Shown: piece after piece, positions 5,179 to 57,715 of the stretch
Position numbering within the stretch: position 1 is the stretch's first letter
Layout of the letters: every line of letters begins with the position of its first letter
Source of the DNA: Clostridia bacterium
GTDB lineage: Bacteria > Bacillota > Clostridia > UBA1212 > UBA1255
DNA: 64,000 bases
NCBI GenBank assembly: GCA_045546695.1
Contig: JAZQDE010000049.1
Span: 7,288-71,287 of the forward strand
Direction: 5' to 3'
Notes under the pieces: model-generated
Database searches by the model: none
What the model saw: the letters and a program-made list of their open reading frames with translations, nothing else
Told to the model about the DNA's origin: nothing
Made by a program: the position numbers and the translations under genes

Positions 5179-6262
5179 TTTCTACCTCATTATCTTCCTT
5201 GTTTTCAAAGTCATTAATTGGTGTATAGTCATTTATCGGATTACCCGCCCATACAATATTTTCCAGTGAATGCATATTCAGGATAACGTTAAAATCAGAA
5301 ATCAGATTATAGGAAACATTCAGTTCCCGTATAGACATGTCCCCGTTAAGGCAAGATATGTCAGTAATGATATTGTGGTTAACGTCAACGTATCCCAGAA
5401 TAAGCATGAAACAAATAGGCGAAATATCGTCAATATAGTTATGACCGATTTCCAGATAAGTAAGAGCTGCCAGAGATGATATGTTTCTGATATTTTTGAT
5501 GCCACAATCATTTGCGATTATGCTCCTGAGATATGGAAGTCTGTATAGTGGCTCTAATGTATCAATTGTACATTCAACACCTTCATCATTAACATATCTG
5601 TTTGAAGAAATATCCAGCTCTATCAGTGAAACGCAGTTACGTAATGATGATATATCTGATATTCTGTTGTTCGTAAGGTCTAACTTCTTTAAGACAGCCA
5701 GTGACGACAGTGCTGAAATATCAGTTATCATATTTTCACGAAGATCAAGTACTTCAAGATTAACGAGTGATTTGAGTGGTGAAATATCCAGTCCGTTTCT
5801 GTTGGATGAGTACAGAACGTTATAATTTTTACCCATATTAAGTTCTTTAAGCGACTTAAGGTTTGATATAGGCGTCAAATCGTTTATTCTGTTGCCATAC
5901 AAGTCAAGTTTTTCGAGCGATGAGAAATATTTCAACTCATCTACGTACATAATTCCACACACACGTGCCGTGAGTTCTTTTATTTGCTGTACGTCCGATA
6001 TAAGAATATCGCCGATATTCTTACCCAGCGCCTTGCGTATAACCGTCTCAAAATTAGGGTCTCTGAACGATATTGCCTGGTCTCCTACCGGCGTTGGAGA
6101 AGCTTTATTTGGATCCTGTGTCACAGATGGAGTAACAACAGCATCAATCGTAGGTCTGATGCTGCTGATTGCCTCTGTATCAGGAGATTGCTTGCAAGCA
6201 ATACCGGAAACAAAACATAAAACAACCAATATTAAAATTATATATTTTTTAATTAACTTCAT
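5162..6262 (-). CDS. leucine-rich-repeat (internalin-like) lipoprotein
   Basis: The likely true start is MKLIKKYIILILVVLCFVSGIAC (lipobox) at 6262. The 6337 start would overlap the upstream gene. The body has multiple LxxLxLxxN repeats (LDLYGNRINDL, LDLRENMITDI, LDLTNNRISDI). Confidence 0.75.
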   Translation of the reverse strand: MKLIKKYIILILVVLCFVSGIACKQSPDTEAISSIRPTIDAVVTPSVTQDPNKASPTPVGDQAISFRDPNFETVIRKALGKNIGDILISDVQQIKELTARVCGIMYVDELKYFSSLEKLDLYGNRINDLTPISNLKSLKELNMGKNYNVLYSSNRNGLDISPLKSLVNLEVLDLRENMITDISALSSLAVLKKLDLTNNRISDISSLRNCVSLIELDISSNRYVNDEGVECTIDTLEPLYRLPYLRSIIANDCGIKNIRNISSLAALTYLEIGHNYIDDISPICFMLILGYVDVNHNIITDISCLNGDMSIRELNVSYNLISDFNVILNMHSLENIVWAGNPINDYTPINDFENKEDNEVENEPLQ

Positions 6263-6275
6263 TTCTAACCCTTTT

Positions 6276-7823
6276 TTATCCTGCAATATCAACCGAATCG
6301 ATGCCTGTGTACTTACCGATTGCCTTACTTTCTCCATTATGCCATACGTAAACAGTATTATTTGATGAATATATAATGTGCTCTATATTTGAATCAAAAA
6401 AGACTTCATTTGCTATATTCTGGCAGATTCTTGTAGTTCTGTTTTCAATTACAAGGTCTAAAGAAAGCTTGTTTTCTGCGTATTTGCGGCAAAGCAGATA
6501 TTCATCATCTGCAAGGCCATAGAGCCTTATTTCGTTTGACATATCAATTTTTTCTATATCACCTTTTTTAAACAATATATAGGCATCCTGTGAGCCATCG
6601 TTTTTCTGGTATCCCATAATCTTTTTATTGTAATAACTGTATAAAAATCCCGTATTATCGGATATCTTTGATATTTTCAGGGATACGTCAAGAACTTTGT
6701 ATCTGTTCAGCGTTGCATCTTCGTTGCGGAAATACAAAAGACCTAATGACTCCTGGTATAAAAACGTTGCGTTTTTATCACACGTTATTTGCTTTTGCGG
6801 CTTATTTCCACCGGCAGACATATAAATTGTGGAAGAATATTCTGACTTGACCGTGTACAGTATCATGTCATCATTCTGCGAGTAATATATAACGTTTGAA
6901 ATTTCCTGCGCAACCTGTTTTATTTTACCATCTTTAAAATACATTAACGATGCGGTTGTTCCTTGTTCATTTGTAACAATATCTGTCAGTAAATACTTGA
7001 ATGGAACAGATTGGTTACATGGTATCTTCTCCGCTATTGGTTCGGTAATATATGACGCTGATGAATTCTTTACGAGCTGAGCACCTTGTTTTTTTGTAAC
7101 TATTTTTCCTTTTATATTTGCAAATACAAGTTCGCCATCTTTTTTATAACAGATATACTCCCCGTCTGAGTCAATATAAAACGATTTACCCGGATCTATA
7201 TTTTCAGCAACTTTTGTAACTTTAGCGTTTTTATCAGCATAAAGAAGGTCCATCTTACCTGTATCTTCCTTTGAATTATCTGCAAAAAGAACTCCATTTT
7301 CACCGATGCAATACAGGTTGTCTATCAATATGTTAGATACAGTATTTTCACTTATTTTGATATATTTATTGCCCTTATATAAGTAAAGATATGCGTCGTT
7401 ATTCAGATCCACTGTGAAAATAACTGATTTGTCTTCAAACAGGTTGAAAAATGCACAGTTGTCTACAAGCATTCTTCTGCTGTTTGTTGTAATATCGTAT
7501 TCAAAGAGTTGGCTTTCTCTGAGGTAGTATACGAGTGCGTTTGACGTATCGTGTACAGCCTGACCTACTGAGTCATCGACCGGTGTAACTTCATATTCTT
7601 CGTTAATAATATACAAATCAGAATTGCTGTCTGTGAAAATAAACGGAAACATCTGTACCCGGCTGACGCCCATATCGTCGTCCTGAGTCATATCCGTTAC
7701 ATTGCCCGGCATTAGTTCGAGTAGCGATATAACAACAAATACAACAAATACAACACAGAATGCAATTATTGCATTGCGTTTTTTATCTCGTGTTATATAC
7801 GTTTTGATTTTTTTCTCAGCCAT
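6276..7823 (-). CDS. hypothetical membrane-anchored (type II) extracytoplasmic protein
   Basis: 515 aa. An N-terminal basic stretch is followed by one TM helix ([18 protein letters not shown]). The rest is Y/N/D-rich beta-type repeats. I recognise no family. It overlaps the metA stop by 8 nt. Confidence 0.65.
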
Positions 7824-8775: not shown

Positions 8776-8866
8776 ATGCACCATCCTTTCAAATAGTATT
8801 ATCTTTTTATTTTACTATAGAAAAGGCAAAAAGTCTATTCTTTATTAAATAAAAATGAATGAAAAA

Positions 8867-8893
8867 AAGCTCTGCCTATGGCAGAGCTTTTAA
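8867..8893 (-). terminator. rho-independent terminator ending the ABC operon (bidirectional-capable)
   Basis: AAAAAAAGCTCTGCC-TAT-GGCAGAGCTTTT forms a 10-bp GC-containing stem. An A-run flanks one side and a T-run the other. It lies 22 nt past the stop of the 8915-10261 gene. Confidence 0.65.
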
Positions 8894-8914: not shown

Positions 8915-10261
8915 TCAATAATCAACCAATGTAGACCAGAGGTCATTACATGTTGTCTGGAGTTCTGTAAAGGCATTTTCAAGTGATACACTACCTGCCA
9001 TTACTTTTGGAATAATCTTAGCCATTTCTGTGTTGATCTTAGTAGCGATTTCGTAAGGCATACGACATACTACCTGACCTACGATACTTGCTGTCTGTGC
9101 TTCAAATACGAAAGCATCCCAGTTCTTATTTACCCAGTCTGCTTCGTCAGGATATCTCCAAGAAGAGTCTTCTTTGAGGCTACCTACTACAGGAACTGAT
9201 GCACCGGGCTGTCCGTTATAAGCTCTCTGACCTTCCTCTGTGTAGAAGAAAAGTGCGAAAGCAGCTGCTGTATCCTGATTTCTTGTTCTGTTATAAACGC
9301 CGAAACCTGAAGAACCGCAACCAAATCCTCTGTTCTGACCATTTTCACCAAAGCCGGGGAATGCAACGATATCCCAGTCAACGCCTGCAGCGTCATAGTC
9401 TTTACCAGCGCTGAGAACCTGAGGATGTACGCAATACTTGAATACAGGAGTACCTTGAGTCTTGGTGCTCGTACCTGGATTGATGTAACCTGCTAAAGCA
9501 GCATCAATACATTCCTGCATAGCCTGGAGTGTACGACCATCTTCATCAATAAATGTAATCTTCTTCTCTTCTGTGTCGCACCATGTGCCACCAACAGCTG
9601 ATTCAAAGAATGTTACATATACAGGTGAATATGTAAGGTCAATGTTTGCACCATAGAATTTCTCGTTTGTCTCTGATGTAGCTTCTGTAACAGTCTTGGA
9701 AATCTCAAGAAGGTCACTCCAAGCCCAGTCATTCTTAACCATTGTAGCAAGGTTGTACTCTTTCAATTTGTCTACGTTGTATGTAAAGCAAATTGCGTTG
9801 TAGTCTCTTGATACATAGTACAGACGACCATCAATCTTACCTAACTCATAAATACCCATGTAAACGTCTGACAAGTCAAGGTCAAGAGCTGCAACATAGC
9901 CCTCAAGTGGCATGAGACCATTACATGTAACAGCATACTCGTAAATCTGTGTCTCAGCGAAGTAGAAAACGTCACCGATTGTACCACCGTTTACACGTGT
10001 AGCTGATGAGTCAGATGAATCGAGCTTAACAGATGCATTTGGATATGCACTCTCAAATGCTTTGATAAAAGAAGTAGCTGCTCTCTTAGCAAAAGCATTT
10101 GACACATTGAATGTCCAAGTGATCTCACCGGATACGTTTACATCGTAATCAGCGTTAACGTTAGTAACGTTTACGATAGGTGCCTGATTACATGCAACCA
10201 TTCCGAATAAAGTGAGAGTTACAATGAACAAGACAATTGCTCTTTTTACAATCTTTTTCAT
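8915..10261 (-). CDS. ABC transporter substrate-binding lipoprotein (extracellular solute-binding family 1, CUT1 type)
   Basis: 448 aa. Signal peptide plus lipobox LFGMVAC. GTIGDVFYF and the overall pattern match sugar binding proteins. It is a paralog of the next gene. Confidence 0.85.
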   Translation of the reverse strand: MKKIVKRAIVLFIVTLTLFGMVACNQAPIVNVTNVNADYDVNVSGEITWTFNVSNAFAKRAATSFIKAFESAYPNASVKLDSSDSSATRVNGGTIGDVFYFAETQIYEYAVTCNGLMPLEGYVAALDLDLSDVYMGIYELGKIDGRLYYVSRDYNAICFTYNVDKLKEYNLATMVKNDWAWSDLLEISKTVTEATSETNEKFYGANIDLTYSPVYVTFFESAVGGTWCDTEEKKITFIDEDGRTLQAMQECIDAALAGYINPGTSTKTQGTPVFKYCVHPQVLSAGKDYDAAGVDWDIVAFPGFGENGQNRGFGCGSSGFGVYNRTRNQDTAAAFALFFYTEEGQRAYNGQPGASVPVVGSLKEDSSWRYPDEADWVNKNWDAFVFEAQTASIVGQVVCRMPYEIATKINTEMAKIIPKVMAGSVSLENAFTELQTTCNDLWSTLVDY

Positions 10262-10363: not shown

Positions 10364-11842
10364 TTAATGTGTGTTTACAGCATCCTGTATCTCCTGCATG
10401 TAAATATCAAATGAAATATCATCTGATTCTGCATAAAGACGGATTGCCTCGCCTATTGCATCGTTAATCTCTGCAGATGGAGCAAGTGGCAGGAATGAAG
10501 TGATTTCTGCCGGATAATCAAATGCACTATACAGTGAAAATACAGATGTGTTTTTACCATCTACAGGGAAATTTCTCCAATATTTCTTTGCGTTTGCTGT
10601 GATAAGAGCAGGAACACGATATCCATCCTCGCCTGTTATGGCAACAGCGGCTTCTTCAACCATCGCATAAAGAGCGAATGTGATTGAATTCTTGATTGTG
10701 TTTTCAACGTTCTCTTTTTCTTCTGCCAAAAGAACCTCATCAGTTATTGCATCGTATACGCCATTAACAACGTTGTAGTGTTCACGGTTAAATGCGGCTA
10801 AACCAATTGTCTGAACACCGATTGTAGCAACACTCGTTTCAGTCTTTTCATCATAGAATCTCGGGAAATGAGCAAGCTCCCAGTCAAAACCGTCTGAATT
10901 GCTTCCGGCAAGACCATTTGCCCATCTTACGATATCTGAGTGATTACAGATAACCATAGCATAATTTGCAAGATCTGCTGCAGAAAGTTCTGCAGGTGTT
11001 TTATCCGCAACAAAACCTGTTTTAATGAAGTTATTTGCAAGATATTCAATACCGCTCAGAACAGCAGGATTTGTAAGTTTTAATGCAATATCATTTTCAG
11101 CAAAATCTACCTCATTGTAAAGCGCTGCACTCTTGCTTCTTGCAAATGCACCCCATACTGAATAATCAGCATAATCCATAACGATAGGAGACTTGTGACC
11201 TGCTTCTACCAGAGCTTTTGCAATCTCTTCTACCTCTTGCCATGTCCAGTCATCTTTTGGTACGACAGGGTTGATTCCGATTTCATTCAACAAATCGATA
11301 TTAAGAAGCATTACGGTGTTGTTGTATTCAACAGGACACATAAACAGTCTTCCGTCATACATTGAATTTGCAAGAGCAGCCGGATAGAAAAGCTTTGAAG
11401 GATAAAGCTTTGTATACTCATCACTTGTATAGTCGATAACGCCTTCACTGTGTTCGCTGAGGTCAATTATATAATCTTTTTCTGCATACTTTGCAAGCAT
11501 AGCTGAATCAATGGTGAAAACGTCACCAATTGTTCCGTTTTCGATTCTTTCTTCTAATGTTGAAAAATATTCTTCAGCGCTGTCTGCAAGATCAAGCTCT
11601 ATGTCTACGCTCGGGTACTGCATTACAAAAGATTGCATATAGTTGAAGCTTGCAATCTCACCGTCATCACAACGATACGAAGAGAATACAACAGAGCCGA
11701 TAAGTTCTTCAGGAATCGGTACAGGAGTTGATAAGCCGATGAATTCGTCCTCATCATCATCTTTTCCCGAACATGAGATGAGTGACAATACCATAATTGC
11801 GGCTAACAACATTGTAAGGATTTTAATTATATTTTTATTCAT
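10364..11842 (-). CDS. ABC transporter substrate-binding lipoprotein (family 1)
   Basis: 492 aa. Lipobox LSLISCSG. GTIGDVFTI is shared with its neighbour. Binding-protein fold pattern. Confidence 0.85.
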   Translation of the reverse strand: MNKNIIKILTMLLAAIMVLSLISCSGKDDDEDEFIGLSTPVPIPEELIGSVVFSSYRCDDGEIASFNYMQSFVMQYPSVDIELDLADSAEEYFSTLEERIENGTIGDVFTIDSAMLAKYAEKDYIIDLSEHSEGVIDYTSDEYTKLYPSKLFYPAALANSMYDGRLFMCPVEYNNTVMLLNIDLLNEIGINPVVPKDDWTWQEVEEIAKALVEAGHKSPIVMDYADYSVWGAFARSKSAALYNEVDFAENDIALKLTNPAVLSGIEYLANNFIKTGFVADKTPAELSAADLANYAMVICNHSDIVRWANGLAGSNSDGFDWELAHFPRFYDEKTETSVATIGVQTIGLAAFNREHYNVVNGVYDAITDEVLLAEEKENVENTIKNSITFALYAMVEEAAVAITGEDGYRVPALITANAKKYWRNFPVDGKNTSVFSLYSAFDYPAEITSFLPLAPSAEINDAIGEAIRLYAESDDISFDIYMQEIQDAVNTH

Positions 11843-11863: not shown

Positions 11864-12901
11864 TTACTCAATGACACCAATTCGTTCGATACCGGCAACA
11901 AGTCTCTTCTGACCAAGAATATATACTATTAATACAGGTAACATTACCATAAGACATCCTGCGAAAAGAACCGGTTCTGAAGAAGCTCTCAGAGTTTCAC
12001 TGATAGCACCGCCATCATAACCTAACTCCTCAAGATAATTCTGCTGAATCTTACTGAGGGATTCCTGGAATGTATTATGTTGTGGCAAGTAAGTATATGT
12101 CAATGTCTCCTGGTTATCATTCCAATGCCATACAAACGAGAATATAAATACGATTGTGAGCGCTGATTTAACAAGCGGGAACATAATCTGACCAAATACT
12201 CTGATTGGACCGGCGCCGTCGATTCTCGCTGCATCGTCCATAACGTCCGGAATTCTCTGGAAGAAGTACATATAAATCAAGATGAACAACGCGCCTCTCA
12301 GACCATGTCCGAAAAGTGACGGAATCAATATAGCGTAGAAACCTTCTGCCATTCCCATCTGTGACCACATGAAGAATGATGCTGTGATCATTGTTTGCGG
12401 CGGGATTAAGAGAATAATGATAACAAATAACATTATAAACAATCTGCCTCTGAACTTAAATCTACCTAATGAATATCCTACAAGAGCACATGAAACGGAC
12501 TGAAGAATCGCACTGCCAAGTGAAAGAATGATGGTATTCAGAAGAGTTGAGTAATAATCACCTATTCCGGGATCAACCAAATCAAGATCCAGTGACGGAT
12601 CTACTGAAAAGACATCCAGACCCATCCATGCTTTCTGGAAGTTTTCCCAGTTAATATGTGTAGGTATGTACTGTACAGTAGGATCCATGTAATCCTGAGC
12701 TGACATCATCGACGTCGTAAAGATGTAGATAAATGGTAACAGGAAAAGATAAGCAAGCTCTATGAGCACATAGTATAAGAAAACTCTTCCGATTACAAAC
12801 TTAATCTTTTTCTTTACTTTATAGCCAAGATTTTCGTATTTAGTGTAAAGGCCAAGGAAAAACTCCTTGATTCTATTTATCAATCGCTTCATCTCAGCCA
12901 C
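11864..12901 (-). CDS. carbohydrate ABC transporter permease (MalG-like)
   Basis: 345 aa with about six TM segments. The EAA-like loop is DAARIDGAGPIRVFGQIMFPL. It has an enlarged extracytoplasmic loop. Confidence 0.85.
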   Translation of the reverse strand: MAEMKRLINRIKEFFLGLYTKYENLGYKVKKKIKFVIGRVFLYYVLIELAYLFLLPFIYIFTTSMMSAQDYMDPTVQYIPTHINWENFQKAWMGLDVFSVDPSLDLDLVDPGIGDYYSTLLNTIILSLGSAILQSVSCALVGYSLGRFKFRGRLFIMLFVIIILLIPPQTMITASFFMWSQMGMAEGFYAILIPSLFGHGLRGALFILIYMYFFQRIPDVMDDAARIDGAGPIRVFGQIMFPLVKSALTIVFIFSFVWHWNDNQETLTYTYLPQHNTFQESLSKIQQNYLEELGYDGGAISETLRASSEPVLFAGCLMVMLPVLIVYILGQKRLVAGIERIGVIE

Positions 12902-13770
12902 CTCCTTGTGAAGAGAATGAATATGAGAATAACAATTAATGTCATCAACATGTAAAGCCAGCTAAGAGCAGCTCTCTCTCCGTATTTATCCATATTGTTG
13001 AGAAGTCCCATTACCGGGTTAGATGAATCAACGAATGAGTCAACAAGCGCGTAAATACAGTTCAGGATAACGAACGGAGATACGTATGGTAATGTGATAT
13101 GCCAGAATGATTCCCATGCAGACGCACCGTCCAGGTCAACAACTTCATAAAGGATATCCGGAACACTCTGAAGAGCAGCAAGGAAGATAAGAATCTCTAC
13201 ACTACTTCTCCACATTATGTGACCAATTTCTGAGGCAATTCCTCCGAATCCTCTCAGGAACTGATTGTTTGCAACAATCTGACCGAAGATACTAATATTA
13301 CCAACGTCATCACTGAAAAGATATGACATGATAACACCGGAAAGGATAACCGGGATAAAGAATATAACTCTGAAGTAAACTCTTCCGGGGAATTTCTGCT
13401 TTAACAGTACTGCAACAAACAATGCAAATGCAACGATTACAGGTACCTGATAAAGAGCATTCAAAAATGAATTTAACACAACCTGACCCGATTCAGGATC
13501 CTGAATAACCTCAATATAGTTATCAATACCTACCCATGTACTAAGGCCTGTATTACACCACAAGTCCTGTCCGTTAACGTTGTAAAAACTCATTTTTACA
13601 GACATGAAGAGTGGAATAAACAAGAACCAAACGAGGCCTATTAACCATGGAATTGAGAAAACCAAGCCTTCAAGATTACGTCTTCTTTCGAAAGATAAAA
13701 ACGTAGTCTTAACTCTTCTATGAGCCAGCTGTTTCTTTGTTAAAACTTTTGTTTTTTTATTATCTGCCAT
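12889..13770 (-). CDS. carbohydrate ABC transporter permease (MalF-like)
   Basis: 293 aa. Polytopic, with the EAA motif region LDGASAWESFWHITLPY. Confidence 0.85.
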   Translation of the reverse strand: MADNKKTKVLTKKQLAHRRVKTTFLSFERRRNLEGLVFSIPWLIGLVWFLFIPLFMSVKMSFYNVNGQDLWCNTGLSTWVGIDNYIEVIQDPESGQVVLNSFLNALYQVPVIVAFALFVAVLLKQKFPGRVYFRVIFFIPVILSGVIMSYLFSDDVGNISIFGQIVANNQFLRGFGGIASEIGHIMWRSSVEILIFLAALQSVPDILYEVVDLDGASAWESFWHITLPYVSPFVILNCIYALVDSFVDSSNPVMGLLNNMDKYGERAALSWLYMLMTLIVILIFILFTRRWLR

Positions 13771-13773: not shown

Positions 13774-16332
13774 TTACTCCCCCTTAGCGCTTATTACGCT
13801 ATATCCTTGACCATCAAATGATAATACGTCATTTGTGTAAGGATCCGTTATCTCAATTGCTTCTTTTTCGTAGCAAACGTATACTCTTGCTCCGCCTGAA
13901 TATTCGGTGCAGTATACTTCAGCATCAGCTGAAAGCTTGTAATGGTTTACAATCTCTTCGTTAACGAAAGGAGCAACAGCTTCTTCAATTGCTTTATAAA
14001 CCATTTCAATTGTACCAAGCTGATCAAGCAGTTCATACTCTGATTTATATAATGTATTGTAATATGTCCACTTAAGCAACGCAGATTCTTCTTTTGTTAC
14101 TTCAATTGAACCTAATGCACCATATTCAATGGATCTGAGCAATGCATCATATTCTACGTCACAGTTATTAATTGGCATTGAATAGTAAGGTACTATGCCA
14201 TGGTAAATCATCTGTACAAACGGAATCTCCTCATCAAGTACAACGTGTGAAGACTTTGTCATAGACATATCGTAAATTGATGATACGAAAGGAACAACAT
14301 ATGAATTACCATTGTATACTGATACAGTATCAAATTTTTCATTGTATTTGATAAGCCAGTCAACATATTTATTGATTAACTGAATTCTGAATAATGCATT
14401 GAACTGGTTATAGTCTGAATAAAGCTGATCACCAATCTGCTGAAGAGTAACGCCTGATACATCATAGTCGCGGAGTCTACCGATATTCTTTGAAAGAATC
14501 TTACTCTCAAAGTATAAAGGACTGAGAATATATCCGTTTCCACCTCTATAATAAGCACCGGAAACTGTCTTGAGCTTATAGTTCAGATAGAACGTACTTG
14601 GAATCTTCACGACAGAATTTCTGAGTGTAGCACTGCCTGACGGTGAACCATACAGGTACAATAAGTTGTTATCATAGTTGACTGTTATACCATTCTCCTC
14701 TGCCCATGCGTTGAATTCTTCCATGTCAAGGCCATCATCATAGCTGCTGTCGGGCTTAAGTTTAGATGTGGAATTCCAGAAATAACCATTATTCATCCAA
14801 CCAACCATTGTCATGGTAATATCTGACATTCCCTTGTTCTTGAGATCATTATAAATATTCTGAGCATCCTTGAATGTTGTCATTACCTTAAGCTGGTTTG
14901 TTACGCCACCTACAGCATTTTCTGCACCCATGAATGTTCTGAGATTCAGAATATCAGCATCAGAAATGTTTCCGATTGTAACGTCAACTCCGTATCTTTC
15001 TTTCCACTGAGCAATCATTTTTGTCTGAACAGTCTTTGCAAGGTCGTTGTAACTATATTCTTTTTCTTCAGATAAATCAAATCTGATACGCTGCTCTACG
15101 TCACCGAGCTGCATAGTTCTTGTAATATCTGAATATGAAGAACCTGACTTTGAAACCTGTCTGTTGAAATACTCTCTATATGTGTACTGAACGTATATCG
15201 CATAGAACGGAACGTTTCTTACACCCGGATTTGATACTCTCAGGTATGCATTTGCTTCACCCTGTTCAATAAATCCGGTAATCATTGAGTTTGCATATTT
15301 ATTAACGTCTTTTGCATCCTCACTCAGATTTTCAATAATACCATATGCCCCAAGAAGGATTGTATGGTTGTTATATCTTGGCTGAGATTCAGCATCCGTT
15401 ACAGAGTCAATTGTATAATCCCAACCGTAAATTCTTTTTGCGTATTCACTTGAGTTACTTACTCTTGATACTGAGAAGTCAGTAACTGCACCTGAACCAT
15501 CCGGAACAACAAAGTAACCGGATTCACCGCTACGATGAGCAAAAAGATATGGAAGAACAGCAAGAGATGAAAGAAGTGGTCTTTCTTCTGCTGTCTGATC
15601 TTCAATATCATCGCTCAGATATGGGCGCTCGATGATACCATTTTTAGGAATGAAATATACAACTTCATTACCATCAAGTGTAATTTCCACAGAAAACTCG
15701 AGTTCGAGGTCTACCATTTCATAAGTCAACCTGATACCATTTTCGATATAGTATACATTTTTAACATGTTCCTGAGTATTTACACCGACAAACAGACCAC
15801 TGTCTCGGCCGGACATCTTTGTGTATCCAATGAATACAGGTGAAGTAATAATATTACCGGTAGAAGTACCCTTCTTGAAAATATCTATATCACCCGGATC
15901 ATCTTCTGTCGCCTGAATCGGCTCAGGATAACTTCTGAAGATCTCACCTGTTGCATTATCCTTGAAAATAAACAAGTCATTCTTTGGGGAATAGCTCATT
16001 GTGAGATATTCATTCTGTGCAATAACTGTCATTCCCTCGTCTCCGAGCATCTGACCGTTAATGCCTTTATCTTTCAGTGGTGCTGATACCTGTACGTCGC
16101 TCTTTATACCTTCGTCGCTGAATGAGATTAAAGATGATTCAGCAAAACCCACCTTGATAATAAGGAAGCCGAGTAAAAATACTGTAACAAGAGCTACAAC
16201 AATCTTAACAATTCTGAGGTAGAATTTCTTTTTTGCCATCTTGGCAGCATATGCTGCAGCTTCTGCCTCATCAATATATAAAGAAGTTTTTTTGGTTTCA
16301 ACATCAATATCTTTTTTCTTTTTCTTAAACAA
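13774..16332 (-). CDS. large N-terminally membrane-anchored extracytoplasmic protein of unknown function. It may be a TIM-barrel glycosidase-like family of the DUF5696 type.
   Basis: 852 aa. A Lys-rich N-terminus (MFKKKKKDIDVETKK) is followed by a single TM (IVKIVVALVTVFLLGFLIIKV). The extracellular body has motifs VPDGSGAV, MTMVGWMNNGYFWN and PFVQMIYHGIVPY. It is translationally coupled to the genes on both sides. Confidence 0.7.
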   Translation of the reverse strand: MFKKKKKDIDVETKKTSLYIDEAEAAAYAAKMAKKKFYLRIVKIVVALVTVFLLGFLIIKVGFAESSLISFSDEGIKSDVQVSAPLKDKGINGQMLGDEGMTVIAQNEYLTMSYSPKNDLFIFKDNATGEIFRSYPEPIQATEDDPGDIDIFKKGTSTGNIITSPVFIGYTKMSGRDSGLFVGVNTQEHVKNVYYIENGIRLTYEMVDLELEFSVEITLDGNEVVYFIPKNGIIERPYLSDDIEDQTAEERPLLSSLAVLPYLFAHRSGESGYFVVPDGSGAVTDFSVSRVSNSSEYAKRIYGWDYTIDSVTDAESQPRYNNHTILLGAYGIIENLSEDAKDVNKYANSMITGFIEQGEANAYLRVSNPGVRNVPFYAIYVQYTYREYFNRQVSKSGSSYSDITRTMQLGDVEQRIRFDLSEEKEYSYNDLAKTVQTKMIAQWKERYGVDVTIGNISDADILNLRTFMGAENAVGGVTNQLKVMTTFKDAQNIYNDLKNKGMSDITMTMVGWMNNGYFWNSTSKLKPDSSYDDGLDMEEFNAWAEENGITVNYDNNLLYLYGSPSGSATLRNSVVKIPSTFYLNYKLKTVSGAYYRGGNGYILSPLYFESKILSKNIGRLRDYDVSGVTLQQIGDQLYSDYNQFNALFRIQLINKYVDWLIKYNEKFDTVSVYNGNSYVVPFVSSIYDMSMTKSSHVVLDEEIPFVQMIYHGIVPYYSMPINNCDVEYDALLRSIEYGALGSIEVTKEESALLKWTYYNTLYKSEYELLDQLGTIEMVYKAIEEAVAPFVNEEIVNHYKLSADAEVYCTEYSGGARVYVCYEKEAIEITDPYTNDVLSFDGQGYSVISAKGE

Positions 16333-18436
16333 GATAACTCAACTCCTTTACCAATTGTGCGATAAATGTGAACAGCTGACTTGTCAATGCATATACGAGA
16401 ATGAATAACATTGCAACTGCTGAAACACCGACAACTGTTATGAAAAATACAACAAATGCTTTAACCGGGTGGAAGCCGTGTATACCCTTGATGGCAAAGT
16501 ATACAAGGAACACTACCAATATCATAAGGATTGTATTCGCAAGATTCCACAGACTTTGTTCATTAAGAGTAAGAACATGTGTCAAAGCATGAAGTGGAAG
16601 TAATGCTATCATCCACGGAACGTGACAATATGCACCTGCGATAAATACGTCTCTGAGACGACCTTCACCATACATGATTGTTGTAACGCCGTAGTTAACA
16701 ACACACATAACAAGCCATGGAATCAATGAGAACAATATTGTCTCAAATGGATTAATCAGGTCGAGAGAAGAGCCTCCTCTGAATATAAAGCTTGTAGCAT
16801 ATTCAGAAGCAACTGAAACGGCAGTGTAAAGTAACATTACAAGCACCATATCTGTATAAGAACCCTGGTTCTCATATCTGATACCTTCAAATCCATCAAC
16901 AGGATGACGTACCACGCCATAGCTTCTGCTGAAGAACTTCTTGACCTTAGTAAACGCATTGTTTTTCTCCGGAGGAACACCATACTTACGTTTTCTGTAA
17001 CGTTTGAATGTCTTCCACGCAATAGCAAGTAACAACAATGCGATGATTGAGATAACAATAACAGTAAAGTAATCTCTTATAAAATATGTTCTGATCTCGT
17101 CAAACGCATCAGAAGCATTTGTGGCATCTTCTGCATCTACAAAATAATCGTATGCTATCTTGTAGTTCTCTTCCTGCATCTTACGCATTTCTATTTTACC
17201 CATGTTAAGAAGAGCAAGTGTATAGAAGCTGTCTTTTTCAAGAATTTCTTTCCAGATCGGAAGAGATTCATCATATTTACCATCAATAAAGAGATTGTTG
17301 GCTTCATGAACCGTCTTGATAAAATCTGTCGGCTCGTAAACTGTAATTGTTGAAGTTGCGTTATCAAGAACGTATACCCTACCTCTGCTGTCAACTTCTA
17401 TACTGATTGGAACTCTGATCTGACCGTATCCAAGACCATCACTGCCGAATACACAAAGGTTGTTGCCCCATTCGTCATATGAATAAATACGGCAATATCT
17501 CTGATCGAGAATGAACATGTTACCATTGCTGTCAACTGTTACATCGATAAATGTCTGGTTAACATCTGAATAGTTGTTTGACAAGCTCGTATCACTGAAG
17601 TTGAATGATCCGTACAATACGTCAGAACCTGCAATGTTAATCTTTCTTACCTGAGGTGGTGTATCTGTTGTTGTAGTCGCATACATATAACCATCGTCAG
17701 ATGCGTAAATGTTTGTGAAAGTATACGGGAGCGTAACGATAGAACCTTTTCTGTCCTCTCTGTCCCAGAGTACTTTTGCAATTGATTCCCAGAAGGAAAG
17801 GTTTACTTTGTTTGTGCCATAGTAACTTCTGAATTCACCATCTGCACTAAGCTGCATGATACCGTTATAGTCACCTGTGTTACATACGTAAATATAACCT
17901 CTGGTATCCTTTGTAACTTTTAAGGGCTGATAGTTAAAATCAACTGATAAAAGTTCACTTTGCGGCATTTCATATGAATATCTCAAGTTACCATATTTTG
18001 TATATTCAACAAGTCTTGAATTACCTGAGTCTGCTACAAGGATTGTACCTGAACCTGAATCAACGTAAACACACATAGGATTCTTGAGTGCTGACTGATC
18101 TTCAGGATATGTACCCTTACCTGATACTTCCAATACAAAATTATAATCAGAATCGTATTTTACTATTCTGTTGTTACCGGTATCTACAACATAAATATTA
18201 TCATCATCATCAATGAAAATATCTTCCGGTTTGCTGAGTTTACCCTCTTCTTTAGTAGGTTTATCAATAACTGTGCAAACTTCGTATGCTGCCGGAATCG
18301 GATAAGGCTTATCCAGAGCACCGTTGTACATATTCAGATAATAGTTCGGATATGGAGTATCGGCACTTACAGTAAACGTACATGTGAATACGAGAGCAAA
18401 TAACAGGAGTAAACAAACATATTTTTTCATTTTCAT
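16325..18436 (-). CDS. secreted NHL-repeat beta-propeller fused to a C-terminal Yip1-like multi-pass membrane domain
   Basis: 703 aa. Signal peptide MKMKKYVCLLLLFALVFTCTFTVSA. There are five or six NHL blades (YVVDTGNNRIVKYD, ILVADSGNSRLVEY, IYVCNTGDYNGIMQL, MFILDQRYCRIYSYD, VYVLDNATSTITVYE). After a TM helix and a basic cytoplasmic linker come about five further TM helices resembling Yip1-domain proteins. Confidence 0.8.
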   Translation of the reverse strand: MKMKKYVCLLLLFALVFTCTFTVSADTPYPNYYLNMYNGALDKPYPIPAAYEVCTVIDKPTKEEGKLSKPEDIFIDDDDNIYVVDTGNNRIVKYDSDYNFVLEVSGKGTYPEDQSALKNPMCVYVDSGSGTILVADSGNSRLVEYTKYGNLRYSYEMPQSELLSVDFNYQPLKVTKDTRGYIYVCNTGDYNGIMQLSADGEFRSYYGTNKVNLSFWESIAKVLWDREDRKGSIVTLPYTFTNIYASDDGYMYATTTTDTPPQVRKINIAGSDVLYGSFNFSDTSLSNNYSDVNQTFIDVTVDSNGNMFILDQRYCRIYSYDEWGNNLCVFGSDGLGYGQIRVPISIEVDSRGRVYVLDNATSTITVYEPTDFIKTVHEANNLFIDGKYDESLPIWKEILEKDSFYTLALLNMGKIEMRKMQEENYKIAYDYFVDAEDATNASDAFDEIRTYFIRDYFTVIVISIIALLLLAIAWKTFKRYRKRKYGVPPEKNNAFTKVKKFFSRSYGVVRHPVDGFEGIRYENQGSYTDMVLVMLLYTAVSVASEYATSFIFRGGSSLDLINPFETILFSLIPWLVMCVVNYGVTTIMYGEGRLRDVFIAGAYCHVPWMIALLPLHALTHVLTLNEQSLWNLANTILMILVVFLVYFAIKGIHGFHPVKAFVVFFITVVGVSAVAMLFILVYALTSQLFTFIAQLVKELSYLV

Positions 18437-18450: not shown

Positions 18451-19329
18451 TTATTTAATACCTGAATGTGCCATTGTATCCATAACACGGCTTTGCTGAA
18501 TTATGAATATTATGATACTTGGCAACGTCATAATTAACGATGAAACTGCTGTCGCACCTGTTCTTGCAACGTTACCGCCAATTGTTGACATAAAGAACGC
18601 AAGTGTTCTTAAGTTCTCTTCATAAATGTATGTGTTTGATGTACCTGCATCGCCCCAGATACCACCGAATGAAAGGATGATAGCTGTTGCCTGAGCATTC
18701 TTCAGAAGCGGCAATGCAATCTTTGTATACAGCTTCCATTCACTTGCACCGTCAATCTTACCAGCCTCAAAAATCGAATCAGGAACCTGATCCAGGAACT
18801 GTTTCATAAGGAAGAGGATTGTCGTTGAAGCCAGACCCGGGATAATATAAACAAAATATGTATTATCAATACCGAGCTTTGTAATAATCAGGTATGAAGG
18901 AATACCTGCAGCTGCTGTTACGAACATCAGGGCTGTTGTAATGAGCTTGAACAAAGCTTTATGTCCTGGGAACTTATGCTTTGAAAGCGGATAACAAGCC
19001 ATTGTGTCTACCATAATCAATGCAAACAAGTAACAGATAGTTACAAATATTGTATTGAAAAGATATCTTGAAAATGGTACCAAGCTGTTTGATGTTACTG
19101 TACTGAGGTCAGAGAAGTTCTGTAGCGTCGGATTCTTAACGAAGAACGTCGGCGGATACAGGAACAATTCCTCCGGTGGCTTGAAGGCCGTGCTTACGAG
19201 GTAAATCAAAGGAAGGAATGATAGGATACCTGCCAGGGACAGGAATATAACAATTATCTTACCAGAGTAATCTCTATGTTTTCTCGCTTTTTTTAAATAA
19301 TCAACGTCAACTTGTAACATATGCATCAC
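18451..19329 (-). CDS. carbohydrate ABC transporter permease (MalG-like)
   Basis: 292 aa, polytopic. EAA loop EAGKIDGASEWKLYTKIALPLL. Confidence 0.85.
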   Translation of the reverse strand: MMHMLQVDVDYLKKARKHRDYSGKIIVIFLSLAGILSFLPLIYLVSTAFKPPEELFLYPPTFFVKNPTLQNFSDLSTVTSNSLVPFSRYLFNTIFVTICYLFALIMVDTMACYPLSKHKFPGHKALFKLITTALMFVTAAAGIPSYLIITKLGIDNTYFVYIIPGLASTTILFLMKQFLDQVPDSIFEAGKIDGASEWKLYTKIALPLLKNAQATAIILSFGGIWGDAGTSNTYIYEENLRTLAFFMSTIGGNVARTGATAVSSLIMTLPSIIIFIIQQSRVMDTMAHSGIK

Positions 19330-20312
19330 TCCTTATCTTGTAAGAGTTTGAACGCAATACGTCCAAGACCCAATATTAATATTGACAACACAACGGCTAT
19401 CGCCGACGCGTAACCAACCTCAAATCGTGTACCGGAGTAGTCTCCTAAGTGCAACATAATCGTAAGACCTGCATCCTCCGGAGACGGGTGACCTGCCATC
19501 GTAGAACCTACAGTAAACGCACCTGTAATCTGTAATACGGCTGCGAAGAGCAACTGTGGCATTGTCTGCGGAATATCAACATACAGAAGTCTCTGGAATC
19601 TTGATGTAACACCGTCAACGGCAGCTGCGTCATATAGCTCGCGGTCAACGCCTCTGAAACCGGCAACAAATGACAAGAATCCTGTACCAAGTGATGACCA
19701 CAAAGCAACTACGATTGTAACCGGCATGATAAGGTTAACGTCCTGAGTCCACATGATAGGCTCATTTATGAAGCCCATCTTCAAGAGTAACGCATTCAGG
19801 TAACCTGTACTATCGTTAGAGAAGAGTACTCCCCATACAACCGTCATCGCTACAGCACTTGTAAGTGACGGAGCATAGAATGCCAGAACGTAGACTGCTC
19901 TGATTTTGTCAGGAACCTGGTTGATAAGCCATGCAAAGAAATATGATGCAACATATCCACAAGGACCAACAATAACAGCATAATAGAGAGTGTTACTGAA
20001 AGCCTTTAAGAAGAGCGGGTCATCAACGAAAAGGTACTGATAGTTTGTAAGACCATTGAATACCGGATCTTCAAGAATACTCCAATAAGTAAAGCTCAAT
20101 GCTGTTGATGCAATCAACGGAAGCAGTGAAAAAATTATAAATACTATAAAGAATGGTGCGATGAGACCATATGACATTTTATAACGCCACATCTCATGCA
20201 GTGTGTAGCCAAAACGTTTCTCAACGTTGAAGAAACGTTTTTTAGGCTTTTGAACTGCAGGCACAGCCGATTCTTTTTTGTTTGAATCTTTATTTTTTGA
20301 CACTCTACTCAC
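19326..20312 (-). CDS. carbohydrate ABC transporter permease (MalF-like) with basic N-terminal extension
   Basis: 328 aa. A Lys-rich cytoplasmic N-terminus is followed by six TM segments. EAA loop DAAAVDGVTSRFQRLLYVDIP. Confidence 0.85.
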   Translation of the reverse strand: MSRVSKNKDSNKKESAVPAVQKPKKRFFNVEKRFGYTLHEMWRYKMSYGLIAPFFIVFIIFSLLPLIASTALSFTYWSILEDPVFNGLTNYQYLFVDDPLFLKAFSNTLYYAVIVGPCGYVASYFFAWLINQVPDKIRAVYVLAFYAPSLTSAVAMTVVWGVLFSNDSTGYLNALLLKMGFINEPIMWTQDVNLIMPVTIVVALWSSLGTGFLSFVAGFRGVDRELYDAAAVDGVTSRFQRLLYVDIPQTMPQLLFAAVLQITGAFTVGSTMAGHPSPEDAGLTIMLHLGDYSGTRFEVGYASAIAVVLSILILGLGRIAFKLLQDKE

Positions 20313-20315: not shown

Positions 20316-23300
20316 TTAATCTTCCTTAAGACTATGGAGACATGAACCAATACTCGGATCAGGACCATCGGCCAGGATATCCCAATATTGTTCTTGTTTA
20401 CGTCTCATCTCTTTATCTATCTCACGGATAGCATCTTCGAGAGCAACTCTTGCACTCTGTCCCTGCAATACTGTCTGGTTAAGAGCTGTAAGCAAGTACC
20501 TTGATGTGTAGTAGTCACCAAGAGTCTGAGGAGTCTCTTTGATCCAATCCCACTGAGCATTGATAACTTCGAGTTCTTCTGCTGTATAAGGTAATTCCTG
20601 TACAGCATTCTTGTTCGCAGAATTCCATCTGCCGGCAACACCGAATGTAGCTTCGATTTCTCTGCCATATTCTGCCTGGACGTCGTCAGAAGCCCACCAC
20701 TGCATGAATACCCATGAAGCTTCTTTTGTCTTTTCAAAATCAGGTCTTTCGTGATTGTTGATCATAATCGAACATGTAGCAACAGCGTTCATTGATCTGT
20801 CAATTACTACCTCACCTGCTTCGTTGAGTTTAGCCTGTCCGGGAACCGGCTTCATAGCCCATTTACCTTCAAGCTCAGGAGCTGCGTAATTGAGCTGACA
20901 ATAGAAGCCCATATCACCGATACCAATCGGCATCTCACCTGATTTAAATCTCATATAGAAGTTTGCAGCGTAAACGAAATTGTACTGTAAATAGAGGTTA
21001 CAATATTCAATAAATCCATCATAAGCTGCCTGCGTACCAAGAGCAGATGTCATACCATGTTCATCATAGAATGTACCACCGTGCTGGTAGAGGAATGGTG
21101 TGTAGCCACCTACACCATAGTTATAACAGAAATCGTAACCTGAGTTTGTAAGAATCGGAATAATATCATATACGTCTTCCCATGTATCAGGAGCAACGAT
21201 TCCTAATTCTTCAAATATATCAGTTCTGTAGAAAAGTGCTGACCAACCCTGTGTCTCCGGGAAACCATAACAGTGATCCTTGAAGTTGATAGGTTTGAAT
21301 ACTTCTTCATAATATGAAGATGCCTTAAGGTCATCAAATCCGAGGTATGCCTCGCCGTTGAACTCGCCTGATTCAAATGTATCAAGCGGAACAAGCGCAT
21401 CTCTTACAGCGTATTCAAACGGAGTACCTACACCGATTGATATAGCAACATCAGGAGCAGTACCTGCAACATAACGTGGCATGATAAGACCTTCAGAAGC
21501 ACCTGCAACCATGTTGAGGTTTACCTTGATACCATATCTTGAAGTAAAGTCTTCACCAATCATGTTCTCGAGAATTGTAACATACTCTCTGGCACGTGAT
21601 ACATATACGGTAATCTCTGTGTCAGCATCTGATGCGCCTTCTCTCAGACCATAGTTAGAATATTTTTCTGTATCGAATGAATCAAAGAATCTTACAACAC
21701 CAACTTTAAGATTCTGCCAACCTGAGCTGACTGTACCCGGATAATCATATCCATCTGTACAAAGAACCATGTAGTCAGCAGTCATAGGCTGATCTTTGAT
21801 TGATGAAAGTGTCGTACTGAGACCTGAAAGAGCATTGTTGATATCGTTAAGAGATGTAGGAATCTTTTCCAGATCTTCTTCGAACTTTTCAAAGAGCTCC
21901 TCTGCAACCTGAATTGCTGATGCGTAAGACGGTACCTTATTACCATTCAGAGCAAGAATCTCTTTATATGTCTCAGCAAAAAGCTCCTTGTATGTAACAA
22001 CGTCATCCTGGATAGAAGGAATGTACTTCTGCAAATCCCAGTCACGGTTTGCATCAACAATATAGCCACCCGAGCTTGAACGTGTAGAAGCAGTAATCTT
22101 TACGATCTTGTTGATAAGAGTTGAAATTGAATCCATTGACTCTTCAAGTGCTACAAGAGCATGTCTGAGTGGACCAACCTTATTTGTAATAGTAATCGTA
22201 TGTGTGCCTGCTTCAAGATAGAACATGTAAGGATTCTGGTTTGCATCACAAAGAGAAGTAGCAATCCAGCCATCTGAGTATGGGAAGCAATATTCCTTCA
22301 TCTCTTCAAAAGGAATCTCGCCGTCAATCTTAATTTCTCTGTAGCATGCAACATATGTGAGTTGTGACTTGTATCTGAAACCGATCTCGTACCAGCCTGT
22401 CTCAGGAACCTCAAATGACCATTGAGCCATGTCGCCACCTGTATTCCAGTTGTCACCGCCGAAGATATTGTAAAGTGTCACTTTATAAGGAGATGCATTA
22501 ACGTCAGAAGATGTGCAATAGTTGCCATCTGTTTCCATACGTGTACTGATACTTGTGACAAAGTCAGCAACCTCAAGTTCAGTCTTGATGATGCCACCCT
22601 TATAGATAGCGCCTTCGCTGAAGCCGTTTGCTGTCTTGTAATCTTCGTATGAACCAATAACAGGAGGTGCTACAAAGCTGATACCATTGATAACACCGGG
22701 TTCTCTGTCAAATGTCATGGTGACAATATGTGTACCCTCTGTCATATAGAATCTGTAAGGATCCTTATAAAGGCCATCAGGGTTTGTCATAATCTGACTG
22801 TTCTGCTTATAAAGAATCATTGTCTTACCACGGATCTGGTTGCCTACGATATCTTTGTTGTTAGCGTAGTCAGTATCATAGAATGTATATGTACGCTTGA
22901 GTGACAGGTTACTTGCTTCAGCAAAAGGATATTTCTCATCAATTGTCAATGAAACAAGCATGTCAGCATACTTTCCACTCAAAAGATAATAATCGAGGTT
23001 CAATGAATACAATGCCGATTCAGGAATTGTAACCTCGAATGTAATAGTAGTCTTGCCTGTAGAAGCGTACAAGCCATCTTCGATGTCCGTAACGGTAACT
23101 TCTTCGTCCTTGGATGGATCTGTATATTTAAAGCCATCTTTGAACTTATCTACTTGTGAAAACAGCTTTAATGCTTCGGACGCATCATCACCCTCGACAA
23201 CAACAGCGCTGTCGGGATTGCCTGTCTCATAAATAGTAAGATTACCATTAGCGTCAGTTGAGAAATCAAGACTGATATCCTCACCTTCGTAATACTTGTA

Positions 23301-23534
23301 ACCCTTCGTTGCATATTTGCTGAGTACCTTACCGTACTCCAGCAAACTGTTATCAAGTCTGTCTTCGTTAGTTATAAACGGATTGAAATCCATCTCATCA
23401 TAATTCTCATAAGCAAATTGCTGCGCACCGGGTTCTTTGGTGAGAGAATTTACTACGAGGACTGCGATGAGAATAACAAGAAGACCGGCTACGACCGATA
23501 ACTGAATAATTCTCTTCTTCTTCTTTTTATTCAT
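20316..23534 (-). CDS. giant membrane-anchored solute-binding protein: an N-terminal TM anchor, a ~550-aa extension of unknown function and a C-terminal family-1 binding-protein domain
   Basis: The preferred start is MNKKKKKRIIQLSVVAGLLVILIAVLVVNSL at 23534, with GGAAGG 9 nt upstream. The 23591 start adds 19 implausible residues. The C-terminal ~480 aa have the binding-protein pattern (periplasmic-binding fold type II sugar binding proteins). It is the first gene of the operon. Confidence 0.75.
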   Translation of the reverse strand: MNKKKKKRIIQLSVVAGLLVILIAVLVVNSLTKEPGAQQFAYENYDEMDFNPFITNEDRLDNSLLEYGKVLSKYATKGYKYYEGEDISLDFSTDANGNLTIYETGNPDSAVVVEGDDASEALKLFSQVDKFKDGFKYTDPSKDEEVTVTDIEDGLYASTGKTTITFEVTIPESALYSLNLDYYLLSGKYADMLVSLTIDEKYPFAEASNLSLKRTYTFYDTDYANNKDIVGNQIRGKTMILYKQNSQIMTNPDGLYKDPYRFYMTEGTHIVTMTFDREPGVINGISFVAPPVIGSYEDYKTANGFSEGAIYKGGIIKTELEVADFVTSISTRMETDGNYCTSSDVNASPYKVTLYNIFGGDNWNTGGDMAQWSFEVPETGWYEIGFRYKSQLTYVACYREIKIDGEIPFEEMKEYCFPYSDGWIATSLCDANQNPYMFYLEAGTHTITITNKVGPLRHALVALEESMDSISTLINKIVKITASTRSSSGGYIVDANRDWDLQKYIPSIQDDVVTYKELFAETYKEILALNGNKVPSYASAIQVAEELFEKFEEDLEKIPTSLNDINNALSGLSTTLSSIKDQPMTADYMVLCTDGYDYPGTVSSGWQNLKVGVVRFFDSFDTEKYSNYGLREGASDADTEITVYVSRAREYVTILENMIGEDFTSRYGIKVNLNMVAGASEGLIMPRYVAGTAPDVAISIGVGTPFEYAVRDALVPLDTFESGEFNGEAYLGFDDLKASSYYEEVFKPINFKDHCYGFPETQGWSALFYRTDIFEELGIVAPDTWEDVYDIIPILTNSGYDFCYNYGVGGYTPFLYQHGGTFYDEHGMTSALGTQAAYDGFIEYCNLYLQYNFVYAANFYMRFKSGEMPIGIGDMGFYCQLNYAAPELEGKWAMKPVPGQAKLNEAGEVVIDRSMNAVATCSIMINNHERPDFEKTKEASWVFMQWWASDDVQAEYGREIEATFGVAGRWNSANKNAVQELPYTAEELEVINAQWDWIKETPQTLGDYYTSRYLLTALNQTVLQGQSARVALEDAIREIDKEMRRKQEQYWDILADGPDPSIGSCLHSLKED

Positions 23535-23690
23535 ACGCTCAACCTTCCATATTGTAGATTGTGAAACGATTATTAACTCAAAACATAACACAAAATACGC
23601 CCAAGTCAGATTTGGGCAAACTTAACAAAATGATTATATAGATTTTATGCAACAGTGTCAACTGTAACCTTTTTATTTTTTAAGATATTT

Positions 23691-57714: not shown

Positions 57715-57715
57715 A

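Follow-up and report, generated by a model that had tools for sequence, protein, structure and literature searches.

A membrane-anchored DUF5696 protein of the GH129/GH101 superfamily belongs to a conserved ABC transporter gene cassette of Bacillota

A 64,000-nucleotide (nt) stretch of a Clostridia bacterium genome (contig JAZQDE010000049.1 of assembly GCA_045546695.1, positions 7,288 to 71,287; hereafter the window) contains, between two pairs of ATP-binding cassette (ABC) transporter permease genes, an open reading frame (ORF) for a protein of 852 amino acids (aa). The question raised by this locus is what a large membrane-anchored protein facing the outside of the cell does in the middle of a transport operon. 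The original prediction, made without database searches, proposed a glycosidase-like fold, offered membership of the DUF5696 family as a guess and suggested that the protein, if catalytic, would be a cell-surface depolymerase feeding the transporter. The analyses presented below identify it as a DUF5696 member and place this family as a deep, distant branch of the glycoside hydrolase (GH) 129/GH101 superfamily. DUF5696 is a fixed component of a gene cassette and not a free-standing enzyme, and we give an even chance to the reading that it is a dedicated surface subunit, acting as a hydrolase, of an undescribed ABC glycan-import cassette of the Bacillota. The gene and the parts of its product are the following.

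13774..16332, minus strand: 852-aa DUF5696 protein with a GH129/GH101-superfamily ectodomain (ORF, Pfam, AlphaFold2 (AF2) model, Foldseek, hhalign)
16147..16212, minus strand: single transmembrane (TM)/signal-anchor helix, codons 41-62, with a Lys-rich cytoplasmic tail before it and a low-confidence stalk (64-94) after it (model, hydrophobicity)
15073..16035, minus strand: N-terminal beta-sandwich, codons ~100-420, with the invariant PDGSG (D278) and YGxD (Y302, D305) loops (DSSP, conservation, hhalign)
13963..15051, minus strand: partly broken (beta/alpha)8 barrel, codons ~428-790, with W512, D554, D635, D640, R649, Y673, N676, D700, H711-G712 and N722 (model, alignments, conservation)
13792..13953, minus strand: C-terminal beta-sandwich, codons ~794-847, which aligns with the C-terminal immunoglobulin-like domain of DagB and NagBb (model, profile search, hhalign)

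The ORF starts with TTG and is preceded at ~10 nt by the Shine-Dalgarno sequence AGGAG. Its homologues comprise one identical 852-aa protein and others of 850-854 aa with 74-85% identity, and both the agreement in length and the homologue consensus, which opens with MFKKK, support the TTG start. A chance ORF is ruled out by homology, the Pfam match having an E value of 2.5e-116 and the family counting 6512 clusters at 50% identity, of which 3925 have E <= 1e-30. Twelve of the first 40 residues are Lys or Arg, the only hydrophobic segment lies at residues 41-59 (Kyte-Doolittle value 2.98), and the AF2 model has a helix at residues 22-63 followed by the low-confidence stalk. The protein is a type-II (N-in, C-out) membrane-anchored ectoprotein, with one TM helix and a positive-inside tail, although cleavage after GFA (residue 64) may be an alternative to the anchor. 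The ORF, the Lys-rich N-terminus and the single helix that had been read from the sequence are borne out, with an ectodomain of ~790 aa, and the motifs cited earlier in favor of a glycosidase-like fold were found again at residues 276-283 (VPDGSGAV), 507-520 (MTMVGWMNNGYFWN) and 704-716 (PFVQMIYHGIVPY).

The family guess proved to be correct. Pfam PF18952 (DUF5696) matches residues 193-828 with 390.1 bits against a gathering cut-off of 25.6 bits, covering the profile almost in full (positions 4-602 of 612); NCBIfam contains no family matching the protein. The AF2 model, built on 33 homologues (predicted local distance difference test, pLDDT, 77; predicted template-modelling score, pTM, 0.80), consists of a partly broken (beta/alpha)8 barrel with one beta-sandwich on its N-terminal and another on its C-terminal side, which is the three-domain architecture of GH129. 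Its top Foldseek match in the PDB is the GH129-like 3,6-anhydro-D-galactosidase DagB (5opq/8rzk; E 1.7e-30, template-modelling score 0.70 on the target), followed by the GH129 enzyme NagBb (5wzp, E 8e-23), then by GH101, GH36, GH97 and GH31 enzymes and, at lower rank, by transferase and branching enzymes of related barrels. The TIM-barrel glycosidase-like fold suspected from the motifs is supported by this model and these matches.

With the protein sequence alone as query, no match was found in the PDB, and only the family profile reached GH129 (5opq, E 1.8e-8; NagBb, E 2.4e-4). Profile-profile comparison by hhalign with a DagB family of 30 sequences, recovered by genome scan, gave a probability of 99.6-99.7% and E values of 6.5e-24 to 1.7e-26 over ~635 columns and all three domains. 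The comparison with NagBb (probability 90%, E 1.5e-6) covered the barrel and the C-terminal domain; the NagBb chain was recovered by way of a NagBb-like sequence rebuilt from a frameshifted contig, and a search with GH129 fragments gave gene fragments only. In the reverse direction, PF18952 scored proteins of the characterized GH129 type, with 52.0 bits for NagBb, 40.2 bits for a DagB homologue and 98.9 bits for an acidobacterial NagBb-like protein. NagBb reaches only 25.0 bits on PF11308 (Glyco_hydro_129), which is under the cut-off of that model. Since PF18952 scores NagBb above the Glyco_hydro_129 model, and the DagB homologue too, the DUF label hides a known enzyme superfamily, and it is on the fold matches, the profile comparisons and these PF18952 scores that the placement of DUF5696 in the GH129/GH101 superfamily is based. 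The window protein itself has no match to PF11308 even at E <= 10 and none to PF12905 (GH101) at the same threshold. Because both sequence models fail to match and because the acid/base position of GH129 is not retained (see below), the protein is a member of Pfam DUF5696 that is not to be filed as GH129 or GH101.

Proteins that bridge DagB-like and DUF5696 sequences were encountered in Lachnospiraceae/Acetatifactor contigs from metagenome-assembled genomes (MAGs; loci L044-L048). They are TM-anchored, 863-869 aa long and 27-37% identical to the 130-aa DagB fragment used as query, and they have PEGGG in place of PDGSG; the one from L044 scores 639 bits on DUF5696.

The DUF5696 gene is the fifth of nine genes that form one minus-strand unit with promoter and terminator bounds, whose other elements are listed here in the direction of transcription.

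23633..23661, minus strand: sigma-70-type promoter, TTGACA-17-TATAAT, 12/12 matches (sequence scan)
23598..23618, minus strand: hairpin resembling a terminator, in the 5' leader downstream of the promoter and ahead of the first start codon, TGCCCAAATCTGACTTGGGCG followed by a T-run (sequence scan)
20316..23591, minus strand: giant solute-binding protein (SBP) with a TM helix, two beta-sandwiches resembling carbohydrate-binding modules (CBM) 6/35, a helical bundle and a C-terminal SBP_bac_1 domain (Pfam, AF2, Foldseek)
19326..20312, minus strand: ABC permease (BPD_transp_1), first pair (Pfam)
18451..19329, minus strand: ABC permease (BPD_transp_1), first pair (Pfam)
16325..18436, minus strand: signal peptide, NHL beta-propeller and C-terminal Yip1 multi-pass membrane domain (Pfam NHL and Yip1, hydrophobic segments)
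12889..13770, minus strand: ABC permease with a divergent BPD_transp_1 domain, second pair, starting 3 nt past the DUF5696 stop (Pfam)
11864..12901, minus strand: ABC permease (BPD_transp_1), second pair (Pfam)
10364..11842, minus strand: SBP_bac_1 protein with an N-terminal hydrophobic segment followed by Cys (LISC) (Pfam, hydrophobicity)
8915..10261, minus strand: SBP_bac_1 protein with an N-terminal hydrophobic segment followed by Cys (MVAC) (Pfam, hydrophobicity)
8865..8891, minus strand: intrinsic terminator with a 12-bp stem and T-run, which closes the unit and is the only strong one (sequence scan)

The position of the gene between two BPD_transp_1 permease pairs was thus described correctly in the original prediction, as was its overlap of 8 nt (16325-16332) with the upstream NHL-Yip1 gene, whereas the spacer between its stop codon and the start of the next permease gene measures 3 nt (TAA-tct-ATG) instead of the 4 claimed. 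Co-transcription of DUF5696 with the transporter genes is supported by the layout of the unit. Of the stoichiometric co-expression that had been deduced from the tight spacing, the co-expression stands, given the consensus promoter, the strong terminator and an adjacency that is kept in nearly all of the metagenomic loci described below; the stoichiometry is not established.

The giant SBP that opens the unit is ~1070 aa long, and its homologue P0222 has 1072 aa. Its true start is probably the ATG near 23534 (MNKKKKK, as in the homologues), which would make the listed GTG start 19 codons too long. Its first 650 residues were modelled with a pLDDT of 89.6 and match CBM35/CBM6 modules in Foldseek, and its homologues have weak CBM_35 matches in Pfam, which contains no model for the combined TM/CBM/bundle/SBP architecture. 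The leader hairpin lies ~65 nt before the probable start of this gene and could be an attenuator; a comparison of the operon leader with Rfam returned no regulatory RNA family. The Cys residues of the two SBPs of standard size were read as lipoboxes, from which these proteins are inferred to be lipoproteins. Pfam detected no ATPase or regulator gene inside the nine-gene unit. Operons lacking an ATPase gene are common among those CUT1 systems that use a shared MsmK-type ATPase. The permease encoded at 12889-13770 is unusually divergent, with 21.1 bits on BPD_transp_1 against a cut-off of 26.4 bits, and its orthologue in the relative L001 has no recorded Pfam match.

The same gene order was found in relatives at 85%, 53% and 45% identity. 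Named relatives are MAGs labelled Clostridia or Ruminococcaceae bacterium. In Paenibacillus lactis (23% identity) the order is kept, with the propeller and Yip1 encoded by separate genes and with LacI, GH26 and GH2 genes added, and other related loci carry a GntR gene with GH20 and GH38, or GH109. With its propeller/Yip1 gene directly upstream of DUF5696 and two BPD_transp_1 genes directly downstream on the same strand, the window shows the arrangement that was then sought in a metagenome scan of 80 loci with 23-55% identity, in which counts refer to the testable loci. The propeller/Yip1 gene is directly upstream in 63 of 67 loci, two permease genes are directly downstream in 63 of 66, and an SBP of at least 850 aa is encoded upstream of the cassette in 33 of 45. 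The 99 neighboring proteins that do not belong to the cassette gave matches to 143 Pfam families, including GH43 (7), GH1, GH10, GH26 and 'Glycoamylase' (3 each), GH18 (2), CBM35, GDSL esterases and LacI-type regulators. As the order of the cassette is near-invariant and the GH families nearby vary from locus to locus, the cassette is therefore constant while the catabolic enzymes change. In the literature searched, no mention of DUF5696 or PF18952 was found, nor anything on Yip1 in combination with a solute-binding protein and polysaccharide utilization, and the propeller-Yip1/DUF5696/permease cassette, usually with the CBM-SBP fusion upstream, appears to be undescribed.

These surroundings bear on the possibility that the cassette serves the processing or recycling of cell-envelope material or exopolysaccharide, in which case the target of DUF5696 would be a surface polymer of the producing cell itself. 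In favor of this, housekeeping genes (murD-like, aspartate-kinase and metA-like) border the unit in the window clade, where it also lacks adjoining genes for regulators or catabolic GHs, and the perfect consensus promoter suggests constitutive expression. However, permeases and SBPs of this type belong to binding-protein-dependent importers, CBM6/35-like modules such as those of the giant SBP typically bind plant or algal glycans, and the cassette is accompanied elsewhere by LacI or GntR regulators and by the catabolic families GH26, GH2, GH20, GH38, GH43 and GH10. An envelope role is for these reasons considered very improbable.

To locate the catalytic site, two enzymes were used as landmarks: the NagBb chain, with D435 in AYLDVF and E478 in TSSEEVSDW, and a DagB orthologue, whose numbering agrees with the essential residues D202, D486, E517 and E531 published for this enzyme (PMC5698469). 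In DagB, C198 contacts the ligand, and only the Asp of the NagBb catalytic pair is shared (PMC5698469). Several findings made with these landmarks, together with some from the gene context, speak against a surface hydrolase. The acid/base Glu of GH129 (NagBb E478, DagB E517) stands opposite Tyr673 in both alignments, in a column that holds D in 41, E in 38, Y in 33, N in 25 and S in 18 of 192 family sequences. The DagB nucleophile D486 corresponds to D635 by hhalign, anchored by a shared Arg (R649/R500), and this position is Asp in only 51 of the 192 sequences; the register near beta4 is moreover ambiguous, since HMMER with NagBb-like bridging sequences puts the nucleophile at position 631. 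The His-Asp/Glu dipeptide that precedes beta7 in NagBb (H520-D521) and in DagB is His711-Gly712 here, with an invariant Gly. One of the acids that the family does conserve, D700, falls to 57 of 74 in an independent metagenome set of proteins. As to context, the wide variety of neighboring GH families is harder to square with one fixed glycosidic specificity, the cassette of the window clade stands without adjoining GH or regulator genes, and among 188 family proteins none was found in which DUF5696 is fused to a Yip1, propeller, permease or SBP domain, so that a physical complex is at most putative. Judged from the alignments, DUF5696 has not retained the catalytic apparatus of GH129, because the acid/base is replaced by Tyr673, the nucleophile column is variable and the His-acid dipeptide has become His-Gly. 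The original prediction had named, as an outcome that would tell against it, a non-enzymatic fold with no conserved acidic pair; the fold is that of enzymes, so that the prediction is not refuted on this count, although the canonical GH129 pair is not conserved.

Other residues are strongly retained. In the 192 family sequences, D278 of PDGSG is found in 181, Y302 and D305 of YGxD in 191 and 182, W512 in 180, D640 of SD[FY] in 181, R649 in 188, N676 in 169, D700 in 177 and N722 in 191, so that D278, D305, D640 and D700 are each 92-95% conserved. Of the 48 positions conserved at >=88%, the window protein has retained 43, including these four Asp residues, R649, N722 and W512. The same pattern was seen in the metagenome set of 74 proteins (D278 in 74/74, D640 in 70/74). 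According to the secondary structure of the model (DSSP), D640 is located in the beta4-alpha4 loop and D700, 60 residues further on, in the beta6-alpha6 loop, both on the catalytic face of the barrel. We take this arrangement to recall the beta4/beta6 Asp pair of clan GH-D, whose two residues are about 5-6 Å apart, an analogy drawn from secondary structure only. The YGxD loop (Y302-D305) aligns with the active-site loop C198-D201 of DagB, in which the next residue, D202, is essential (PMC5698469) and stands opposite the variable Y306. DagB employs D202 in trans.

Two acids call for separate comment. D640 was considered as the GH129 nucleophile; hhalign gives position 635 for the DagB nucleophile and HMMER 631 for the NagBb type, and D640 lies five residues downstream of 635, so that any assignment of the nucleophile is tentative. 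E736 was dismissed as a catalytic candidate: it lies where helix alpha7 ends, on the bottom face of the barrel, and is probably structural.

Positions 635 and 673, which are poorly conserved one by one, behave differently when they are taken together. Outside the query clade (n=163), an acid is present at 673 alone in 74 sequences, at 635 alone in 32, at both in 5 and at neither in 52, which makes the two near mutually exclusive (odds ratio (OR) 0.11, p 7e-7, phylogeny ignored), and the metagenome set points in the same direction (OR 0.24, p 0.04); the query clade itself combines D635 with Y673. This distribution suggests that one carboxylate may be needed near these positions and may be supplied from either strand end, as a migrating carboxylate. 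The likely pocket would be formed by D640 and D700 on the barrel face and by D278 and D305 on loops of the N-domain, and would likely include a further carboxylate at position 635 in the query clade or at 673 in most other members. Catalysis by DUF5696 is plausible but open, because the canonical pair is not conserved and yet D278, D305, D640 and D700 are; if the protein is catalytic, it acts without the Asp/Glu pair of GH129. The role of depolymerase, which the original prediction had put forward conditionally, is likewise not established. Taking all chemistries together, we regard some glycosidic catalysis as somewhat favored.

The same residues bear on two other explanations. DUF5696 might be a non-catalytic GH-like pseudoenzyme that serves as a glycan receptor, as a dock for SBPs or as an assembly or stability subunit of the importer, in analogy to the heavy chains 4F2hc and rBAT. 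A substrate-independent structural role would fit an invariant cassette in variable GH surroundings, and the failure to conserve the GH129 catalytic positions (635 variable, 673 Tyr, 712 invariant Gly) would be expected, as would a single-pass anchor and a gene translationally linked to those of its membrane partners; the family profile also gives a weak signal against 4F2hc ectodomains, which at E ~0.1 is not significant. Such near-invariant carboxylates, Asn, Trp and Tyr on the catalytic-face and N-domain loops are, however, unusual in pseudoenzymes, and both the mutually exclusive acids at 635 and 673, which suggest one required carboxylate, and the YGxD loop, which maps onto the active-site loop of DagB, argue for a working site. 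A pseudoenzyme is therefore a possible but less favored explanation. The loss of the canonical retaining pair with conservation of different acids could also indicate an enzyme of another chemistry, such as a transglycosylase, a glycoside phosphorylase, a lyase-type or anhydro-sugar-forming enzyme, or an inverting hydrolase whose acids are positioned differently. Drift of catalytic residues has already occurred in the superfamily, as DagB illustrates with its single shared Asp (PMC5698469), and the lower-rank Foldseek matches include transferase and branching enzymes. Against this, no positive evidence points to any specific alternative reaction, an extracytoplasmic site argues against phosphorolysis and the neighboring genes encode ordinary hydrolases, which makes another chemistry unlikely.

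Comparison with known systems sets the hydrolase reading in context. DagB shares the three-domain architecture over its full length and the residue pairs W512/W382, D305/D201, R649/R500, H711/H556, N722/N570 and H797/H630 (DUF5696/DagB). It differs in being only ~18% identical to the window protein and in being a soluble or lipid-anchored enzyme of Bacteroidota polysaccharide utilization loci, whereas DUF5696 is TM-anchored and encoded beside ABC importer genes. Besides the substitution at E517, DagB E531 falls in a gap and the D486 position is not conserved in DUF5696, whose invariant PDGSG, SD[FY] and LD-x-x-PF motifs are its own. NagBb, the GH129 alpha-N-acetylgalactosaminidase of Bifidobacterium bifidum (PDB 5wzn), is the second-best fold match and is recognized by PF18952 as described above, but an N-terminal TM helix is absent from the chain recovered. 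Two residues altered in its deposited quadruple mutant, H320 and D322, stand opposite T508 and V510 in a reading of the sequences by eye. GH101 (EngBF, SpGH101), the clan GH-D families GH36, GH31 and GH27, and GH97 have in common with DUF5696 a beta-sandwich and a (beta/alpha)8 barrel (Foldseek E 1e-16 to 1e-10), with lower template-modelling scores (TMq 0.34-0.42) and no sequence-level match.

At the level of the whole system, CUT1-type importers and the Sus-like systems of Bacteroidota likewise bring together genes for glycan binding, for a GH-like protein at the cell surface and for transport, often with regulators and catabolic GHs, whereas the cassette described here has fixed propeller-Yip1 and DUF5696 subunits, two permease pairs and a TM-anchored CBM-SBP fusion of ~1000 aa. 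A precedent for a Yip1-family protein as assembly factor is YknW of the Bacillus YknWXYZ system, which is co-encoded with an ABC transporter whose assembly it modulates (PMC4887032). YknYZ is, however, a MacB-type exporter with a membrane-fusion protein, while Yip1 here accompanies importers and is either joined to an extracellular NHL propeller or encoded next to one. The resemblance to 4F2hc and rBAT is one of analogy only: both are single-pass type-II proteins whose ectodomain is glycosidase-like and which pair with a multi-pass transporter, but they are eukaryotic, of GH13-like fold, disulfide-linked to an SLC7 carrier and catalytically dead, and the homology signal is not significant. By analogy, the window protein would above all resemble a surface GH that is attached to a carbohydrate ABC importer of Gram-positive bacteria.

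For the preferred reading as a surface hydrolase, the following sequence of events can be proposed. The cassette comprises the propeller-Yip1 protein, DUF5696, two MalF/G-type permeases and putative lipoprotein SBPs, and is usually joined to a second importer with a CBM-bearing SBP of ~1000 aa. This SBP and the propeller would hold the glycan at the membrane surface, where the DUF5696 ectodomain, tethered beside the permeases, would bind it and most likely cleave or trim it. The products would be imported by way of the lipoprotein SBPs and the two permease pairs, with an ATPase encoded elsewhere powering the transport. In a more far-reaching form, which we put forward tentatively and hold to be rather doubtful, DUF5696 and propeller-Yip1 would be obligate extracytoplasmic subunits of an unrecognized architectural class of binding-protein-dependent ABC importers of the Bacillota, the GH129-like ectodomain being docked on the permease pair so as to couple capture and cleavage of surface-bound glycans to import, or else to gate SBP access. 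If true, this class would be a Gram-positive counterpart of the Sus complexes and a bacterial parallel to 4F2hc-type heavy chains.

The rest of the window gave no clue to the substrate beyond a GH78-like alpha-L-rhamnosidase (Bac_rhamnosid6H; 29327-31486, minus strand), which is the only other GH detected in a scan of the ten large ORFs outside the operon and lies ~6 kb upstream of it with no evident link. Downstream of metA, and outside the terminator-bounded unit, are genes for a 515-aa TM-anchored protein without Pfam or NCBIfam match (6276-7823, minus strand) and for a leucine-rich repeat protein (5162-6337, minus strand), both of which are syntenic in the relatives L001-L003. A 999-aa ORF at 37841-40840 (minus strand) has no Pfam match at E <= 1e-5. 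A cluster at 52006-57870 (minus strand) encodes the large subunit of an [FeFe]-hydrogenase along with a NuoF-like flavoprotein and a GltD-like oxidoreductase, which fits a Clostridia host that lives by anaerobic fermentation.

DUF5696 is a large family without experimental characterization, and the present results, namely its membership of the GH129/GH101 superfamily, the replacement of the canonical catalytic residues and the fixed cassette across loci targeting different glycans, turn it into a testable hypothesis on how Gram-positive bacteria of the gut and soil couple surface glycan processing to ABC import. If catalytic, DUF5696 would represent a GH family or subfamily not recognized so far, its active site being non-canonical; if non-catalytic, it would be a bacterial example of a glycosidase-like accessory subunit of a transporter. 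Either outcome would improve the annotation of Gram-positive polysaccharide utilization loci in microbiome data.

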